Shown here piece after piece: positions 19,111-39,007 of a DNA stretch of 39,142 nucleotides. Made by a program: the position numbers and the translations under genes. Each line of letters begins with the position of its first letter. The stretch's first letter is position 1. Source of the stretch: a virus; the IMG/VR virus record IMGVR_UViG_3300045988_157503, positions 1 to 39,142 of that record. One strand, given 5' to 3'. Under the pieces are notes generated by a model, which was not told the DNA's origin, ran no database searches, and was given only the letters and a program-made list of their open reading frames with translations.

Positions 19111-20856
19111 TTATTGCCCTGCATTTGCAGATACTGGTGTTTCTGCTTGTTGAATTATTTGCATCACGTATTGTAATATTTGTGGATTTTGTGCTATCTT
19201 CTGACTTATCTCAGGTGGCAATAATTGTTTCTTTCTTATTTCCTTTAGTTTAGCCTTAAATGGCATTGCAGTATCTGGATATAAGTCAATATAATCATCA
19301 AATGTTATATCTCCTCTTTGTAACGCTTGTTCCAATAAATTAATTGACAGACTCTCACTATATGCACTTCCTGGTCCAACGTCTACAGTTGTTTCAAAGT
19401 CTATATCTCTATACATCGCTCCATTAAACACATTGATTTCTGCATTGTTATCTTCTTCTACCATATACTCCGTATCAAAATTATAATAAGCCTTAAAGAA
19501 TTGTTCCCACACTCTTGCTATCTTTTCGTGCACTCTCCAAAATCTCTTTTGAATATCTTCAATAGGTACTTTAGCTTGTGTTTGTAGTGCTACTATAGCA
19601 CTACCACTCATATTCTTGCCTAACACTTCTCCATTTGCAACTTCTGTTGCTCCTGTAACAACTCTTGTTACTTCCAATAGCTTGTCTGATATGGTTATAG
19701 GCATACTACTAAACGCTGGTGGATTTAAGTACTTAATTCCATTAAACATTGGGCTATAATCTGTTATTACTTCTCCTGGTTTATTTGTTATCGTTTTGCC
19801 TTGTAACGCTCTTGGATGTAATATAACTTTCGGAAATCCCATATTTTGAGATGCCATTTGCATCATTGCATAGTTAAAGTTAATAGCTTTTTGCGTAGGG
19901 ATAAGTTGTTCTACTTCTCCTATACCATAAATGCTTTTTTCTCTTTCCTCGTGGTTTCCTACCACAATAGGATATAATGACATCTTATATTGAGAATGTT
20001 CTGGTTTATCTATATCAACTGCCTCGTTGTCTTCGTTCGTCTTATCTTCTTCATCTATATCTAACTTAACTTTTGTCGCATCTGGCGTTAATGGTGTTTC
20101 AGGTTGTACTATCATATTTTTACAACTTTTAATATAATATACTTCCCCATTTTTTCTGAAATATCGTGTAAGCACTGTCGCATATTCTTCTCCGTCTTGC
20201 TCTTCATAATCGTAATTTCTCTCGCTGTCGTCATCAGATGTTATTAGTTCTATTTCTGTTTCGCTTATTCCATTTTTCTCTGCTATCTTTTTAAGTGTTT
20301 GTACATTCTCTCGACTTTGAATAATAATCCACTTTTGTTTTTGCTCGTCTTTTTGCTTTGGATTAGCAAATACAATATTTAGACAGTCTATTATTTGACC
20401 ATTTAGCCCACCATTAAATTTTGCCATTCCAGTTGTGCTTTCTCTATCCCAAAAATAATGAAACACATAAGTTCCTTTTTTAAGTCCATCTAATATTGCT
20501 CTATCGTCTAAATCTTCTTGTTTGATTTCCTTTCTAATATGATTAGCAAAACTAGTAAAAGCACTAGCTCCCTTAGTTGCTATGTCTGACTGATCTTGAC
20601 TATATACTAATGGTTTATATATTGTTGATATTTTACTCGATAGGATATTTGCTTTTTTACCATTTACTATATATTTTATAATGTTGATTACCGGCCTTGG
20701 CATATTTTTTGTTTTCTCAGTTGCTTGTGGCCATTGCCTTCCTTCAAAGAAATCTACGTTTTGTTCACAAGTTTCTTTTAATCTCAATTTCTTTTGATAA
20801 GCTAAACCTTGTTCCCAGTCGTTCCAAATTTTACTTGCTAATTCTTCTCTAGTCAT
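19111..20856 (-). CDS. Portal protein (581 aa)
   Basis: Size and position immediately downstream of the terminase large subunit. RBS is AAAGGAGAG. Confidence 0.75.
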   Translation of the reverse strand: MTREELASKIWNDWEQGLAYQKKLRLKETCEQNVDFFEGRQWPQATEKTKNMPRPVINIIKYIVNGKKANILSSKISTIYKPLVYSQDQSDIATKGASAFTSFANHIRKEIKQEDLDDRAILDGLKKGTYVFHYFWDRESTTGMAKFNGGLNGQIIDCLNIVFANPKQKDEQKQKWIIIQSRENVQTLKKIAEKNGISETEIELITSDDDSERNYDYEEQDGEEYATVLTRYFRKNGEVYYIKSCKNMIVQPETPLTPDATKVKLDIDEEDKTNEDNEAVDIDKPEHSQYKMSLYPIVVGNHEEREKSIYGIGEVEQLIPTQKAINFNYAMMQMASQNMGFPKVILHPRALQGKTITNKPGEVITDYSPMFNGIKYLNPPAFSSMPITISDKLLEVTRVVTGATEVANGEVLGKNMSGSAIVALQTQAKVPIEDIQKRFWRVHEKIARVWEQFFKAYYNFDTEYMVEEDNNAEINVFNGAMYRDIDFETTVDVGPGSAYSESLSINLLEQALQRGDITFDDYIDLYPDTAMPFKAKLKEIRKKQLLPPEISQKIAQNPQILQYVMQIIQQAETPVSANAGQ

Positions 20857-20858
20857 CG

Positions 20859-21071
20859 TTACTCTCCTTTCACTTCTCCAGTCATATACTCGTCATATAT
20901 ATTTGTTTCTTGATTTGTTTTTTCTGGACCGTTTAGCCATTCATTAAAAATTTGTTCTGCTGATGTTTGTTTTTCTGTTGCTTCTTTCTTGTCTGTTTTT
21001 TCAACAATTGTTTTGTATATAAATGGTGCTATTCCTAATACATAACCTACTACTACTGCTATTAATACCAT
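20859..21071 (-). CDS. Small N-terminally membrane-anchored protein (70 aa)
   Basis: RBS is GAGGAGGA. TM segment is VLIAVVVGYVLGIAPFIY. It overlaps the TerL 3' end by 10 nt. Confidence 0.5.
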   Translation of the reverse strand: MVLIAVVVGYVLGIAPFIYKTIVEKTDKKEATEKQTSAEQIFNEWLNGPEKTNQETNIYDEYMTGEVKGE

Positions 21072-22399
21072 ATATCTTCATCCTCCTCTTCTGTTTGTAA
21101 TTCAAAAGGTAACTCTTGTTTTTTTGGCATAAAAATAGGCTCTTGTGTCCAATAAACACAAAAACCTCTTATTGCATCCACCGAATGTGTTAACTCATGT
21201 GGTTCGTTTGCTATATCTCCAACTCTTTTCTCATCATGTTGTACTCGTGGCAAACATCTTATTAAGTTCTTACAAGTATTAAATATTTTTAATCTAGCTG
21301 TCATACAACCTTGCTCGTCTTTATATGGCTTTAGCCATTCTTTCATTTGTAGCCAACCTTGTATTCTGTCATTGTTAGTCTTATACAAGGTTATGTCTCC
21401 TTCTTCAAATATATCTGCTGTACTCTTACCTGTTTCTTTGTGCCTATTCCACAAATCTGGTGGCGCTAAATACAAATATATCTGTTCGTTTGTCATTTCT
21501 TTTATTTTATCTCTAGCTTGTGATACTAATAAATTACTTTCGTAGACCTCTCTAAACACATAAGCATTATTATTATAGTCTACTGCTATCCAGTAACCAG
21601 CCAGTTTGTCTAGTCCATAGTCCATAACAAAATAGATATACCAGTCTTTTGGTATTTCAAATGGTTCTATTACATGTATATCTCTTTTAAATTCTGTAAA
21701 AAACTGACCGTCAAAAATGTCCCAGTCACCATACTTTAAAGCTCTTCTTTCCTTTTCCGGTAAAGCATCTAATCTTTTTATATAATCTGGGTCATATGTT
21801 AGCATAAATTTATTATCTTGTACCAAACTAGGAATAAATATTCTTGTTGTGGTTTCTCCTGTTTCTAATTTACAAGTATGTATAACATTTGGTGCTCCTA
21901 TATCTATAAATCTTTCTTTTACCCAATTATGTCCAACTCCACCTGGATTTGTAGAGCTTTTTATACATTTAGGATATGGATTAGCTCCACGACATCTAGA
22001 TATCATATATGTGTACATAAATTCTGTAAAATGAGTCAATTCGTCAAAACGTATTACATCATATTCTGCTGATTGATACTGATATACATCTTTTTCATAT
22101 TGTATATAGCCAAAGTCTACAATACTCCCATTTTTAAATTTCCAAGTATGTTTAGAGCTGTTATAATCTGCTATAGATAATGGATACAAATCCATACTTG
22201 TTCTAATCAATGACTTTTCTAGATCTGCAAATGTACTTCTAAAAATAATTTGTTTACTTTTAGGATATTTTAATGCATATAATAGTCCATCAACTAGCTG
22301 TCCATAGCTTTTTCCTCCTCCTGCAGCTCCACCAAATAAAGTTTCAAAAGCTTGACTATCTATAAAAGCTTGCTGTTTTTTTGTTATTGAAACTTCCAT
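21062..22399 (-). CDS. terL: Terminase large subunit
   Basis: Walker A is FGGAAGGGKSYG, and a nuclease half follows. The ORF-track start is TTG at 22411. The first ATG (22399) lies 2 nt past the TerS stop. Confidence 0.85.
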   Translation of the reverse strand: MEVSITKKQQAFIDSQAFETLFGGAAGGGKSYGQLVDGLLYALKYPKSKQIIFRSTFADLEKSLIRTSMDLYPLSIADYNSSKHTWKFKNGSIVDFGYIQYEKDVYQYQSAEYDVIRFDELTHFTEFMYTYMISRCRGANPYPKCIKSSTNPGGVGHNWVKERFIDIGAPNVIHTCKLETGETTTRIFIPSLVQDNKFMLTYDPDYIKRLDALPEKERRALKYGDWDIFDGQFFTEFKRDIHVIEPFEIPKDWYIYFVMDYGLDKLAGYWIAVDYNNNAYVFREVYESNLLVSQARDKIKEMTNEQIYLYLAPPDLWNRHKETGKSTADIFEEGDITLYKTNNDRIQGWLQMKEWLKPYKDEQGCMTARLKIFNTCKNLIRCLPRVQHDEKRVGDIANEPHELTHSVDAIRGFCVYWTQEPIFMPKKQELPFELQTEEEDEDIWY

Positions 22400-22400
22400 A

Positions 22401-22781
22401 CTACTCAACAACCTTTATATCTACTTCAAATTTATTATTTACTGTGCTTTCTCCTTTTGCTAATGCTCGTTTATCATATAATGTTCCTATCACTGTCGAT
22501 AAATTATTAACTGGTATTTTCTCCTCTTCATCATCTAAAGCTTTTTCTAATCTTTTTAATGCTTTGTCTATTATTATATTTGCTTTATCTACAAATTCTT
22601 CTTTCTTTTCATTACATAGTTTTACAAATTCTGGTTTATCTTTGTTATCTTTGTATATTTTTTCCACTGTAGTAGTAGCAATACCCAACTGTCTTCCAGT
22701 TTCACTAAAATTGTTCGTACTAAACATACTTATCATTATCTTATATATAGTTTCGTTGTCTGTTTTCTTCCCTTTTGCCAT
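22401..22781 (-). CDS. terS: Terminase small subunit (126 aa, HTH-type)
   Basis: The ATG at 22781 is preceded by GGAGGGGAAAA. Product is MAKGKKTDNETIYKIM...TGRQLGIATTTVEKIY. It lies directly upstream of terL. Confidence 0.6.
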   Translation of the reverse strand: MAKGKKTDNETIYKIMISMFSTNNFSETGRQLGIATTTVEKIYKDNKDKPEFVKLCNEKKEEFVDKANIIIDKALKRLEKALDDEEEKIPVNNLSTVIGTLYDKRALAKGESTVNNKFEVDIKVVE

Positions 22782-22961: not shown

Positions 22962-23049
22962 TGGCGGAGAGAGTAGGATTCGAACCTACGAAGGTTTTAC
23001 CCTTGCTAATTTTCAAGACTAGTACATTAAGCCACTCTGCCATCTCTCC
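22962..23049 (-). tRNA. tRNA-Ser (anticodon UGA), type II with long variable arm, CCA encoded
   Basis: Folded by hand from GGAGAGA-TG-GCA..TGT-A-CTAGT-CTTGAAA-ATTAG-[CAAGGGTAAAACCTTCG]-GTAGG-TTCGAAT-CCTAC-TCTCTCC-G-CCA. The acceptor stem is 7 bp, the loop has U33 and A37, the anticodon is TGA, and the discriminator is G. Confidence 0.85.
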
Positions 23050-23050
23050 A

Positions 23051-23084
23051 TTTTTGCATAAATAAAAGAGCCTATTACGGCTCT
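23051..23084 (-). terminator. Rho-independent terminator closing the two-gene cassette
   Basis: AGAGCC-TATTAC-GGCTCT (23067-23084) is followed on the minus strand by TTTATTTAT. It lies 13 nt past the stop of the 4-TM gene. Confidence 0.55.
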
Positions 23085-23097
23085 CTTTCTTGTATAT

Positions 23098-23616
23098 CTA
23101 ATCTATACTTTTAGGTGTTATTATGTTATCCTTATTTATTTCATTTACTCCATTTTTGGGTATTTCCTCTTTCATTACCGAATTTGCAATTCCAAAAAAA
23201 TATAATAGTGAAAAAATTAAATAAATCAGAAATAATATTGCTAGGCATATAAATATATTTAATGGTGTTTTTGATATAGTCATAGTATCATTATTATATA
23301 TTCCTGACACATAAAGTAGTGCTATTGCACTTGCGATTCCTGCAAATATTGTCATAAACCAATTCAAAAATAATACCTTCTCTTTTTTTTCTTTTACTAT
23401 TACTTTAATAATTTTTTTATCAAAAAAACCTATTACTATACTGATAGTTGTAATTAAAAAACCTACTAATATGCTAATAAAATTAATGCAGTTATTACTT
23501 ATCATATCAAAGTTATTTATTTTTATCTCATTTTTTAAAATATTATTAAATATAAAAAAGCATACCAAACTAATAATTAGAGGTACTAAAAATATCTTCC
23601 ATTCTTTTTTGTCCAT
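23098..23616 (-). CDS. Four-TM membrane protein (172 aa), second gene of the accessory cassette
   Basis: RBS AAGGAG is 5 nt before the ATG. Hydrophobic segments are at about aa 8-27, 44-65, 81-105 and 119-144, followed by a short polar C-tail. No family recognised. Confidence 0.7.
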   Translation of the reverse strand: MDKKEWKIFLVPLIISLVCFFIFNNILKNEIKINNFDMISNNCINFISILVGFLITTISIVIGFFDKKIIKVIVKEKKEKVLFLNWFMTIFAGIASAIALLYVSGIYNNDTMTISKTPLNIFICLAILFLIYLIFSLLYFFGIANSVMKEEIPKNGVNEINKDNIITPKSID

Positions 23617-23638
23617 AATTTCTCCTTATTAGATTTTA

Positions 23639-24544
23639 TTATATCATATTATTTTTTATTCTATCCAAATATTTTTGCTTTATTTTTTCAAAAATATCCT
23701 TATGTATAATTGGTTTATTTTTGTCTACATCAACTACGATTATATCATGCACTCTTTCCTTTATAAGACTCACTTTATCTAGTAGTGCTCCTTCTTCACT
23801 CCTATAATCTATTTCCAAATCTTCTACGCCAGGAACTTTTTCCACTCCGTCTATTACTTCTTTTATTTCCTCAATATTCAGAGTATTTTTCTTTTTTAAT
23901 TTTCTTCCAAACCCTATTTCGATTTTACATTGCGTTCCTTTAAATCTTTTAGCAGCACCAAACAGCATCTTGAATAATGTATCATCTTTATCTTTCTCTT
24001 CTGTCGATTCTGGTCTTAGTGTAACACTTAGTCTAGTACAAAATTTAGCATTTTTAATTTTGTTTTTACTATCTTTTATTATAATTGGTCTTAATGATAT
24101 TACATTGCTTAAATTCTTTTGAAATTTTTCAAATATTTTTTCTAGTAATGGTCTTGTAATGTAATTATGATTAATTTGCATTGCAAGTATAAATCTTTTT
24201 TCATCATACAATAGAGTTACCGATTCTGCATAATATTTATTTCCATCTAGAGTAACAATAACATACTCCCCCGAGTCATCGTCTACTATCCCTGGCATCA
24301 CATACTTTCTAGCTCTTAATAATTGTATTTCCCATATAGCCTCATCTTTATGATACTGTATTTCTTGTACTCTAACCTTTTCTTCGTTATATTCAAATGT
24401 TCTATCATTTATATCTGCATTTTGAAGATGCAATAATATTGGAGATATATCGCACTTTCCTTCTTTATATCCATCCTTTTCCTTTGCTTTACAATATGAC
24501 CATACTTCATAATAATCTACATTTATGCCTCTTTTTTTTGACAT
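23639..24544 (-). CDS. Soluble 301-aa protein of unknown function, first gene of the accessory cassette
   Basis: ORF-track ORF 23639..24583. The internal ATG at 24544 has RBS AAGGGG at 7-nt spacing, while the ATG at 24583 has none. I see no Walker, HxH, HNH or HEPN motif. Confidence 0.7.
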   Translation of the reverse strand: MSKKRGINVDYYEVWSYCKAKEKDGYKEGKCDISPILLHLQNADINDRTFEYNEEKVRVQEIQYHKDEAIWEIQLLRARKYVMPGIVDDDSGEYVIVTLDGNKYYAESVTLLYDEKRFILAMQINHNYITRPLLEKIFEKFQKNLSNVISLRPIIIKDSKNKIKNAKFCTRLSVTLRPESTEEKDKDDTLFKMLFGAAKRFKGTQCKIEIGFGRKLKKKNTLNIEEIKEVIDGVEKVPGVEDLEIDYRSEEGALLDKVSLIKERVHDIIVVDVDKNKPIIHKDIFEKIKQKYLDRIKNNMI

Positions 24545-24584
24545 ATAATCGCCCCTTAATAAGAATACATTAAAAATATGCATT

Positions 24585-24816
24585 TTTCAACTTATTTCGA
24601 TATACATATTTCTACAAAATTCGACAAATTGAATTATTCTTTATTTTTTTGACTATACTAAAAAAGTTTCGGCATCTAATAGTATTAACATTCTCTCCAT
24701 ATAATAAAGGAGCTAGATTTTTCTAACTCCTTCTTTTACAATTATAATTATAGCACCTCAAAAGCGAAATTAAAAGGAAGTTTTTGCGAAATTTTAGCGA
24801 AGTTTTTGCGAAGTTC
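24585..24816 (-). promoter_or_regulatory. Regulatory region of the cassette / late region: phased TTCGC repeats, extended -10 promoter, hairpin, second candidate promoter
   Basis: Minus-strand elements, in order. TTCGC boxes (plus strand GCGAA) lie at 24808-12, 24797-801 and 24786-90 with an 11-nt period, plus one at 24764-68. TGcTATAAT is at 24755-24747. A hairpin spans 24707-24732. TTGTCG (24627-22), 17 nt, TATATC (24604-24599) overlaps the AAATTCGACAAAT motif. Confidence 0.45.
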
Positions 24817-36181: not shown

Positions 36182-36409
36182 TTATTTTATTTCACAAGTA
36201 TTGCTTGTATTTTCATCTAAAAAAATTTGTGGAAATATATAATTTATAGGTTTGTTGTAAAATTGTGACAACTTTATGCAAATCCCTATCTTGGGTGGTT
36301 TGTTAGAATTTTCAATGTTCGAATATTGCTGTTGTGTAATTCCTAAAAACCTTGCTATGACTACTTGTGGTCTATTTCCTCTTAATTCTTTACATTTATT
36401 GTTTTTCAT
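36182..36409 (-). CDS. Cro-like XRE HTH protein (75 aa)
   Basis: It diverges from the repressor gene. HTH is RPQVVIARFLGITQQQYSNIENSNKPP. The ATG at 36409 has AGAGGTGA upstream (the ORF-track start is GTG 36418). Confidence 0.65.
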   Translation of the reverse strand: MKNNKCKELRGNRPQVVIARFLGITQQQYSNIENSNKPPKIGICIKLSQFYNKPINYIFPQIFLDENTSNTCEIK

Positions 36410-36426
36410 ACTATTCACCTCTTTTT

Positions 36427-36539
36427 ACAAGTTTTTCTTGTTGTTGCGATTATATTATCACAAGCAAAACTTGTTGTCAATAGTTTTTTACAATTTTTTC
36501 TTGTTTTTTATTTACTTATACAAATTTAGCTTGTATAAT
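36427..36539. promoter_or_regulatory. Genetic-switch region: four 15-bp operators plus divergent promoters
   Basis: Operators are ACAAGtttttCTTGT (36427-41), ACAAGcaaaaCTTGT (36460-74), ACAATtttttCTTGT (36490-504) and ACAAAtttagCTTGT (36520-34), spaced 33/30/30 nt. The leftward promoter is TTGACA (36480-75), 17 nt, TAATAT (36457-52), with operator 2 in its spacer. The rightward extended -10 is TGTATAAT (36532-39). Confidence 0.7.
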
Positions 36540-36557
36540 ATTGTTAGAGGTGTTGAT

Positions 36558-36896
36558 ATGAATAGGATTAGACAATTAAGAGAAGAATTTAAAATTTCTC
36601 AAACTGAATTGGGAAAAAAATTAAATAAGACACAACAACAAATAAGTTTATATGAAAATGGAACAAATGAATTAGATTTAGATGGTTATATAATTTTATC
36701 AGAGTTATTTGGTTGCTGTATTGAATATATAGCCGGTAAATCCGACATACGAAATCCACAGCAATCTGACCCACTTGGACTTGCTAAAGTAGGCTTTAGC
36801 ATGGACAAGTATGTTCCTCCAACAGACGCACAAAGAGAGCAGATAAAAGGGTTGCTTGAGGTAATATTAAAAGATAATAAGAAGGAGGAAAAATAA
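36558..36896 (+). CDS. CI-like XRE-family repressor (112 aa)
   Basis: The ATG at 36558 is preceded by AGAGGTG. HTH is IRQLREEFKISQTELGKKLNKTQQQISLYENG. The 5' part of the 206-aa ORF-track ORF covers the operator region and is not coding. Confidence 0.75.
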   Translation: MNRIRQLREEFKISQTELGKKLNKTQQQISLYENGTNELDLDGYIILSELFGCCIEYIAGKSDIRNPQQSDPLGLAKVGFSMDKYVPPTDAQREQIKGLLEVILKDNKKEEK

Positions 36897-37857: not shown

Positions 37858-37885
37858 TGTTTCTTTTTTTAGAAAGGATTTGAAT

Positions 37886-39007
37886 ATGGCAAAGAAAACT
37901 AATTATTCTAAAAATGGCAAAAATTATTATAGAATCACAAAAACTATAAGTAAAAAACCTGACGGCACTTCAATAAAAAAAGAATTTTACGGTTCCTGCA
38001 AAGCGGAAGCTGAAGAAAAAGCAACTAAATATATTAATGATTTAAAGTTAGGATTAATCGAAAAAGATAAAAAGTATACTATAAATATATTGTTGCCACT
38101 ATGGTTATATGGGACCAAGAGAAACACAGTTAAAGCATCTACTTTAGACAGCTATGATGGTATATACAAAAAATATATTAAGCCTAATGTAATCTCAAAT
38201 ATTCCAATTAATGATATAAAAACTTTAAAAATACAAGAATATTATAATAATTTAGATACAACTGCTAGTAATGTTAAAAAGGTTCATAAACTACTTTACC
38301 AATTTTTCAATTATTCTGAAAAAGAAGGCTATATAGTTAAAAATCCTTGCAATAACGTTTCTCTTCCCAAAGAGAAAAAAACAACATTAGAAGTTTTAAA
38401 AAATAAATCTAAATTTCAATATTATAGTGAAGATGAAATAAAAAGGTTAAAGGAAGTTTTTAAAGATAATAAATTCAAAAATGTAGTTTTATTCGCTCTT
38501 GGAACAGGTATGCGAAGAGGAGAAATATTTGGACTGCAATGGTCTGACATTGACTTTGAAAAAAAAGAAATACATGTTATACACAATTTAACATATATTG
38601 CAACAAACATCACCGAGACTTCTAAAACTTATCATTTAACACTACAAACTCCAAAAACTGAAAACTCAATCAGGACTATACCTATGTCAGACAGTATTTA
38701 TAAACTATTAAAATCAATTTATGACATAAATTCAACTTATGTGTTTTCTCCTAACGACGGGCATTTTGATATAAAATATTTTGAAAAAGTTTATAAGAAA
38801 AAATTAAAAGAAGCGCATATCGAAAATAAGAACTTTCACGACTTAAGACACACATTTGCAACTATGTTATTGGCAAATGGAGCAGATCTTATAACGGTTA
38901 AAGAGTTGCTTGGTCATAGTTCAATAAAAACAACAGAAATATATTTAGAAGCATTACCTAAAACCAAAGAAGATGTTGTCAATAAAATCAATTTTATTTG
39001 TAACTGA
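37886..39007 (+). CDS. int: Tyrosine integrase
   Basis: The catalytic region contains [24 protein letters not shown] and [14 protein letters not shown] (R..HxxR..H..Y). The ATG at 37886 has GAAAGGA upstream (the ORF-track start is TTG 37880). Confidence 0.9.

Follow-up and report, generated by a model that had tools for sequence, protein, structure and literature searches.

A DUF6731 protein and a four-transmembrane partner in a gut Clostridia phage: a likely relative of the lambda RexA–RexB module

The stretch of DNA analysed here, positions 1 to 39,142 of the IMG/VR virus record IMGVR_UViG_3300045988_157503 (39,142 nucleotides (nt); the window), comes from a temperate siphophage of gut Clostridia and carries a cassette of two adjacent genes, A and B, located between a late regulator gene and the DNA packaging genes. 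Gene A encodes a soluble protein and gene B a small protein with four transmembrane (TM) helices. The closest known system is RexA/RexB of phage lambda, which has the same gene order, a relationship based on fold and on profile–profile comparison. In evolutionary and structural terms the pair is very likely a RexAB-type module, with A contributing both fold and profile similarity, and B its topology and a weaker profile similarity. That it also functions by the full defence mechanism, as a two-component exclusion or abortive infection (Abi) module, is argued by analogy and is probable, although held with less confidence than the assignment. A first-pass annotation had described the cassette as an uncharacterised system, a description that the relationship to Rex overturns. 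The cassette does not represent a new type of system; what is new is that the DUF6731 family is linked to Rex, and that Rex is thereby extended to phages of Clostridia. Rex is the oldest known abortive infection system, and its trigger and mechanism of activation are still unresolved.

Fold and profile evidence for a RexAB relationship

The gene A product is a member of Pfam family DUF6731 (PF20505), which it matches over residues 3-295 of 301 with an E-value of 1.7e-52 (179 bits versus a cut-off of 27). It is soluble, with a maximum 19-residue hydropathy of 0.88, and has no enzymatic Pfam domain, consistent with the first-pass annotation in which no catalytic motif was seen. Scans of Pfam, PHROGs, NCBIfam and PADLOC returned only families of unknown function, a PDB sequence search with the A profile returned nothing, and tblastn against 50,697 deposited phage genomes gave no match. 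An exhaustive HMMER search identified 541 DUF6731 cluster representatives (50% identity) at E <= 1e-3; the best 150 of these 541 are almost all single-domain proteins of ~300 amino acids (aa).

A structure of A was predicted with AlphaFold2 from a 21-sequence alignment and no templates (predicted local distance difference test (pLDDT) score 79; predicted template modelling (pTM) score 0.73). When this model was compared with the PDB by Foldseek, as the first-pass annotation had advised, the top matches were chains B and A of lambda RexA (8TWQ; E 4.8e-7 and 4.7e-6, respectively, probability 1.00), followed by chains of the kinetochore protein CENP-N and by RdgC (2OWL, E 4.7e-3). In BFVD, the model matches RdgC-like phage proteins (phage RdgC, E 1.1e-3). 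RdgC, a DNA-binding protein associated with recombination, is a structural relative of RexA (PMC11077077) and has the fold in common with it, but is a stand-alone protein without a membrane partner, and its matches to A are weaker than those of RexA. The published RexA structure combines a split globular domain with a dimerisation domain of four strands and a long C-terminal helix, alpha8. The order of elements in the A model, a beta-rich N-terminal region, four strands and three helices within residues 148-248 and a long C-terminal helix at 281-297, agrees with this topology and places A in the RexA/RdgC fold. The isoelectric points of A and RexA are 8.57 and 8.61, respectively.

Comparisons by hhalign with the single lambda RexA and RexB sequences are not significant (E 0.27 to 0.013). 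Because these comparisons are weak and the available family models miss the cassette proteins, alignments of the RexA family (14 sequences) and RexB family (10 sequences) were built from lambdoid phages and IMG/VR loci, together with deep DUF6731 profiles. A broad DUF6731 profile of 148 sequences (A7) aligns with the RexA family with E 4.3e-4 and a score of 33.7 over 263 co-linear columns, whereas 12 column shuffles of the RexA alignment score 14.4 +/- 1.9 (maximum 17.4) and the reversed RexA alignment 13.9. With a merged profile of 169 DUF6731 sequences, the score is 44.5 (E 8.4e-6, probability 83%). The alignments extend end to end, over 263-264 co-linear columns, a sign of remote homology at the sequence level, and the signal rises with profile depth, the behaviour expected of true remote homology. 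Motifs common to the two families include L-x-DDE-Y-I-G-E in DUF6731, with LADDESLGF as its RexA counterpart, and I-x-L-x-P-I, corresponding to IEPL in RexA, just before the hinge.

Hydrophobic segments in B span residues 5-28, 41-67, 80-108 and 114-148, and the AlphaFold model (pLDDT 81) has four long helices at 3-26, 36-64, 79-106 and 116-150, close to the positions assigned to the four TM helices in the first-pass annotation. An N-in/C-in topology, with both termini of B in the cytoplasm, is suggested by basic residues at its N-terminus and in the loop that follows TM2. The TM positions nearly coincide with those of RexB, which also has a basic loop after TM2, and B is of the type expected of a RexB-like partner, a four-TM protein of ~140-190 aa encoded directly downstream of a RexA-like gene. 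The B and RexB families align by hhalign with E 7.9e-4 and a score of 28.0 across the N-terminus, TM1, the first loop, TM2 and the basic loop. Control scores were 12.4 +/- 3.1 for shuffles, 14.2 +/- 3.5 (maximum 20.8) for block shuffles that preserve the TM segments, and 13.6 and 14.2 for cross-controls. At ~4-5 standard deviations above shuffles, this similarity between B and RexB is suggestive only. B also matches a PHROG of unknown function, phrog_17119 (E 1.7e-8), and has sub-threshold matches only in Pfam, to weak transporter and holin families.

In lambda, as in the cassette, a soluble protein of ~280-300 aa is encoded first and is followed by a four-TM protein of ~145-170 aa, with only a short gap in either case (15 nt in lambda, 22 nt here), and both pairs are carried by temperate phages. 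They differ in that sequence identity is ~12%, B has an extra C-terminal, cytoplasmic tail of ~25 residues relative to RexB, and the cassette is a terminator-flanked accessory pair rather than being adjacent to, and co-transcribed with, a repressor gene. The hosts are Enterobacteria for lambda and Clostridia here, and the function of the cassette is a predicted one.

Just five RexAB-like systems are present in the literature, all from Proteobacteria or Actinobacteria (PMC12894663). RexABpp, encoded by PP_5643/PP_5644 near a CI-like repressor gene in prophage P1 of P. putida, showed no BLAST similarity and was assigned to this type from remote HHpred and structural similarity of its A protein to 8TWQ and from its four-TM partner; phage defence and RexB-dependent membrane damage were then documented experimentally in 2026 (PMC12894663). 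The cassette is likened to RexABpp as a phage-borne pair assigned by the same criteria. The actinobacteriophage systems Sbash gp30/gp31, CarolAnn gp44/gp43 and Butters gp30/gp31 likewise consist of a soluble RexA-like protein and a membrane partner that are expressed from the prophage and exclude heterotypic phages. They are comparable to the cassette in architecture but are from hosts of a different phylum, have varied gene orientations and positions and, in Butters, have the two proteins in swapped roles. In the fold search with B, a 165-aa Sbash protein appears at rank 13 with a non-significant E-value of 2.4.

A number of results weigh against the RexAB assignment or against the mechanism based on it. 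The RexA models of Pfam (PF15969) and PADLOC do not match A at E <= 1, or any of 148 DUF6731 representatives, in searches in which lambda RexA itself scored 1e-97 and 9e-110, respectively, as the control; in a transitive Pfam test, none of the 148 representatives formed a bridge to RexA or RdgC. The narrow subfamily profiles A1, A3 and A8 have no significant similarity to the RexA family (E 0.17-0.33, scores 15.2-17.6). The global template modelling (TM-) score of A against 8TWQ is just 0.38-0.40, with a root mean square deviation of ~17 Å, values that may reflect a hinge between the two domains. The RexB models of Pfam (PF15968) and PADLOC match neither B nor its homologues, a fold search of BFVD with the B model gave no significant named match and, as four-helix membrane bundles are generic, the evidence from B is weaker than that from A. 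Genes of the RexAB type are expected beside a CI-like repressor gene, with which they would be co-transcribed in the lysogen; the cassette is instead separated from the integrase/Xre immunity module by ~12 kb and sits in the interval from the late regulator to terS. Adjacency to a repressor is, however, not universal among accepted Rex-like systems, as exemplified by Sbash, Butters and Rubeelu. The candidate promoter of the cassette is a weak match to the consensus, leaving expression of A and B in the lysogen presumptive, and the reversed roles in Butters make the direction in which A and B would act on each other uncertain. A search of a literature library found no paper that mentions DUF6731.

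A conserved gene pair in a variable slot

The cassette region was compared with 22 IMG/VR phage contigs (L103-L124) that have the same upstream regulator, with 66-99% identity, and just four of these carry A and B. In L109, with flanks that are 95-98% identical to the window, a 1.59 kb segment that includes A and most of B is precisely missing, as defined by blastn boundaries and the junction sequence (Table 1). L109 retains the terminator-like hairpin T1 upstream of the segment and, downstream, the final ~15 nt of the B frame with its stop codon, the hairpin T2 and the transfer RNA (tRNA) gene. At L109:5150-5215 the end of the B frame, positions 23098-23115 in the window, is joined directly to T1. 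The presence of this B remnant suggests that the L109 lineage once had the cassette and that recombination removed or exchanged it. In the closer cassette-less relatives (regulator identity of 97% or more), homology to the window ends where T1 ends, at 24707 (24701 in L112), and in the more diverged L113 at 24739.

In sister phages, the slot is empty or has unrelated cargo, including a Tad2-like Thoeris anti-defence protein (Pfam E 7e-28), a HicB antitoxin, a DUF4406 protein and several proteins without a family match; none of these cargo genes matches a PADLOC model. Cargo follows the regulator gene, for example, at L122:5197-5745, L124:5607-5954 and L112:1096-1389. This variation marks the slot between T1 and the packaging genes as a hypervariable place of conflict-gene exchange and documents the site after the late regulator as a hotspot at which defence, anti-defence and toxin-antitoxin cargo is swapped. 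The clean presence or absence of the A–B pair in near-identical relatives supports its identity as an autonomous accessory cassette (moron) in a variable slot, as the first-pass annotation had proposed for both the inserted cassette and its location. The cassettes in L104 and L108 are 96-100% identical to that in the window, but homology of these contigs is lost downstream of ~22781 and their packaging genes are different. Conversely, L110 and L112 have the TerL of the window and lack the cassette. From this pattern over 20500-22780, the module boundaries are therefore strongly mosaic.

Loci encoding A homologues were gathered from several collections, with a 21-sequence subset alignment used for the metagenome scan. 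A multi-TM open reading frame (ORF) of 160-195 aa directly follows A on the same strand in all of the ~45 scorable loci, those long enough downstream of A, except L065, and homology to B is recognisable in most of them. The pairing persists to ~20% identity in A, including in GC-richer contigs (upstream-region GC content <=0.47 versus 0.30 in the window), and A and B diverge in step, with identities, at the same loci, of 55% and 49% for A and 58% and 55% for B. A conserved third gene was sought but none was found; the neighbours differ in every context, with the 183-aa regulator common only to related phages. In the window, L001, L011-L014 and L125, the pair is directly upstream of terS in phages that have different terminase families. 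In L006-L010, it is located in a non-phage chromosomal block that adjoins DUF6339-DUF4420-DNA methylase genes, with variable downstream neighbours that include BREX, Cas9, Fic or AAA_21 genes. In L005 (7122-9444), the pair is inside a structural module, ahead of a gene encoding an 894-aa protein, possibly a tape measure, and it follows a gene, itself perhaps accessory, for a 249-aa SHOCT-domain protein. Retention of both genes across this divergence and in defence-rich islands, a co-occurrence that the first-pass annotation had listed as a check, supports the A–B pair as a mobile conserved unit, present in unrelated prophages and in chromosomal islands with defence genes. In some loci (L016:1939-2833; L060-L062:3745-4663; L064:337-1251) a frameshift, a stop codon or an assembly error divides A into two ORFs, with B intact.

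Gene starts, flanking genes and regulatory elements

Both ORFs, with the sizes, the 22-nt distance from the A stop to the B start and the ribosome-binding sites (RBS) reported by the first-pass annotation, are present on the minus strand, as are nearly all genes in the window, which is AT-rich (29.6% GC). Translation of A could also initiate at an ATG at 24583 and so generate a 314-aa protein. The 301-aa start, at 24544, is favoured because the homologues align from this position, where all of them begin, and because of the RBS. A near-identical public protein, A0A8S5S8L2 from Siphoviridae sp. ctylc9, is annotated with 314 aa, that is, from 24583. Upstream of A is the gene for the 183-aa regulator, which has weak RinA/sigma-like matches. 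The tRNA and terminase neighbourhood reported earlier was found downstream, with tRNA-Ser(tga) followed by a terS-like gene and then TerL. The phage is considered temperate because the window also encodes an integrase and an Xre-like regulator.

Table 1. Positions in the window of the cassette, its regulatory elements and flanking features
Feature	Position	Strand	Remarks
Gene A	23639..24544	-	301 aa, soluble, DUF6731; RexA-like fold; predicted sensor and DNA-binding component
Gene B	23098..23616	-	172 aa, four TM; RexB-like; predicted membrane effector
RBS of gene A, AAGGGG	24552..24557	-	7 nt ahead of ATG; direct sequence reading
RBS of gene B, AAGGAG	23622..23627	-	5 nt ahead of ATG; direct sequence reading
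Segment precisely missing from L109	23116..24706		1.59 kb; blastn boundaries and junction sequence
Cassette-specific upstream region	24545..24706	-	missing from cassette-less relative L109
Hairpin T1, terminator-like	24707..24732	-	T-run after; inverted repeat I7, 11-nt arms, 91% complementary
Hairpin T2, terminator-like	23064..23087 (core 23067-23084)	-	T-run; 10 nt past gene B stop
Candidate promoter TTGAAA-17-TATTCT	24590..24562	-	9/12 consensus match, weak
Candidate internal promoter TGGATA-18-TGATATAAT	23638..23667	-	extended -10; 10/12 match with TG; overlaps gene A stop
TGTCGA motif	24626..24621	-	within cassette-specific upstream region
tRNA-Ser(tga)	22962-23049	-	downstream of gene B
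Xre-like regulator	36276-36896	+	right end of window
Tyrosine integrase	37880-39007	+	right end of window

Hairpins T1 (dG -16.3 kcal/mol, z -6.3) and T2 (dG -13.5 kcal/mol, z -4.3), both followed by T-runs, bracket the A–B pair on the coding strand. T2 is the terminator that had been noted beyond B, and its stability bears this out, whereas T1, which forms the left border of the accessory slot, is part of the phage backbone and not of the cassette. The regulatory region that the first-pass annotation had assigned to the pair, 24585-24816, stands only for the part that lies within 24545-24706. The remainder, 24707-24816, is conserved backbone, with phased repeats, the promoter-like TGCTATAAT and T1, that is present also in cassette-less relatives and, because homology to these relatives stops at 24707, the upstream region that belongs to the cassette is 24545-24706 only.

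Within this region, the candidate promoter listed in Table 1 makes it plausible that the cassette has a promoter of its own, and there are clearer promoters at the equivalent position in L001, L005, L011 and L026. Across the region as a whole, sigma-70-type promoter matches are no more frequent than expected by chance (21 found versus 21.2 expected). The sequence at the A–B junction could function as an internal promoter for transcription of B alone. Its TGnTATAAT is kept in the window, L001, L005, L011 and L016, despite differences in the C-terminal residues of A, and is not present at the A–B junctions of distant lineages. In lambda, P_LIT provides a parallel for such an internal promoter of the B gene.

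In 10 of 25 non-redundant DUF6731 loci, as compared with 3.4% of background windows, the hexamer TCGACA/TGTCGA precedes the A start, at a distance of 35-83 nt. It is seen in the window (24621-24626) and in L005, L006, L011, L017, L051, L053 and L057, with a palindromic arrangement, TTGTCGAAATTT...AAATTTCGACAA, in L017 and L053. This hexamer may be an operator, perhaps an autoregulatory one. An Rfam scan of the region identified the tRNA only; neither a riboswitch nor a small RNA was detected upstream of A.

Directly 3' of the stop codon of the 183-aa regulator, at 24744-24816 on the minus strand, there are five phased 11-bp repeats of TTCGC[A/T]AAAA[C/T], then the extended -10-like TGCTATAAT (24755..24747) and, ~15 nt further on, T1. 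This element is kept in the cassette-less L109, and analogous repeats are present in L011 and L026. A promoter followed immediately by a terminator, beside a late regulator gene, recalls PR'-tR' antitermination in lambda, and similar antitermination here would explain how terminator-flanked cargo is tolerated just downstream.

Proposed mode of action, alternatives and related defence candidates

The combination of a cytoplasmic protein and a small four-TM protein is an Abi-type architecture, as the first-pass annotation had recognised, and a mechanism can be modelled on lambda RexAB and RexABpp. The lysogen would transcribe A and B from the promoter of the cassette, between T1 and T2 acting as insulating hairpins. 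Protein A, soluble, basic and with a RexA/RdgC fold, would probably dimerise and bind DNA, and would sense a product of a superinfecting phage, either a DNA-protein intermediate of replication or recombination or a specific phage protein. Activated A would then engage B in the membrane, with its predicted N-in/C-in topology, and B would oligomerise and render the membrane leaky or depolarised, so that a collapse of ATP and growth keeps the incoming phage from finishing its cycle. We infer all of these features, expression in the lysogen, dimerisation and DNA binding by A, the A–B interaction, membrane damage by B and protection from phage, from the analogy with the two model systems.

The main alternative is a Rex-like module in which the roles are reversed, as in Butters gp30/gp31, so that A is the toxic effector and B sequesters or silences A until infection. 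The same structural and synteny evidence applies, and both polarities exist among the Rex-like systems in the literature. The loci in which A is broken and B is intact (L016, L060-L062 and L064) would be tolerable if A were the dangerous partner. Of the five Rex-like systems described, however, four have the membrane protein as effector, no toxic or enzymatic domain can be recognised in A and B is conserved as much as A, so that we regard reversed roles as unlikely.

A marginally less likely alternative is a function for the benefit of the phage that carries the pair: A, as a DNA-binding protein of the RexA/RdgC type, would bias the lysis-lysogeny switch or modulate recombination, with B as a modulator, and defence would not be the primary function. 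In favour of this, DNA binding by lambda RexA is non-specific and this protein stabilises the lytic state without need of RexB, the structural matches of A include RdgC, and the cassette is in a phage, beside a late regulator. But the pair is also found outside phages, in chromosomal islands where BREX, Cas9 and methylase genes are neighbours, near-identical phages can do without it and it is far from the immunity region, and a role of this kind would leave the strict coupling to a membrane partner unexplained.

It is improbable that the pair constitutes an addiction or lysis module, with B as a holin-like protein or small membrane toxin and A as its antitoxin or regulator, that stabilises the element or times lysis. 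This would be in keeping with the size and logic of a two-gene toxin-antitoxin operon, with the HicB antitoxin that fills the same slot in a sister phage and with a very weak Pfam match of B to a phage holin (E 0.19). The holin match is, however, far below threshold, a large soluble protein that is encoded first and has a RexA-like fold is unlike known antitoxins, and near-identical phages that do not have the cassette must still lyse. Both this and the switch or recombination role are less likely than reversed polarity because the pair is dispensable, is present in chromosomal defence islands and is always coupled to a membrane protein. Kiwa, a membrane sensor (KwaA) plus effector (KwaB) named as the nearest system by the first-pass annotation, has only the general soluble plus multi-pass membrane architecture in common with the cassette and can be dismissed, as PADLOC, a library expected to include Kiwa, gives no Kiwa match to A or B (E <= 1) or to 148 family members, there is no DUF4868 in Pfam searches, the gene order is opposite and the top structural match of A is RexA.

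With RexAB-type exclusion retained as the preferred reading, its scope can be considered. Tentatively, DUF6731 proteins and their four-TM partners may form a large unrecognised branch of RexAB, a mobile membrane-depolarising Abi module with a TCGACA-type operator upstream of A and a P_LIT-like promoter for B. If so, 541 clusters, distributed over phages of Clostridia, further phyla and defence islands in chromosomes, would belong to it, and RexAB would be not a lambdoid curiosity with five examples but among the more widespread two-gene defence architectures, most of which would be missed by current defence finders. The link between DUF6731 and Rex itself provides a testable functional hypothesis for the 541 clusters and their obligate membrane partner, widens the host range of the RexAB type to gut Clostridia phages and chromosomal defence islands, and exposes a detection gap in standard defence finders, as the PADLOC and Pfam models for RexA and RexB miss the cassette. 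A deep DUF6731 alignment could help to find the residues responsible for sensing and for A–B coupling.

The first-pass annotation had advised searches with family models; these placed A in DUF6731, and no named system in PADLOC matches A or B at E <= 1. The sole PADLOC match of B is a weak one to the candidate PDC-M53B (E 2e-4). PDC systems are candidates nominated for being embedded in BREX, DISARM or type I restriction-modification loci and have no assigned mechanism. Seven of 148 distant DUF6731 representatives match PDC-M67A (best E 1.3e-7) and the partner in L066 matches PDC-M67B (E 9.5e-7). These matches make PDC-M67 a subfamily of this two-gene family, although its models miss the A and B of the window, and PDC-M67 is accounted for by the RexAB-type reading. 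The B-type partners from the window, L066 and L068 have weak matches to the membrane components PDC-M53B, PDC-M67B and PDC-M18B, and several apparently different PDC candidates may share one four-TM effector family.

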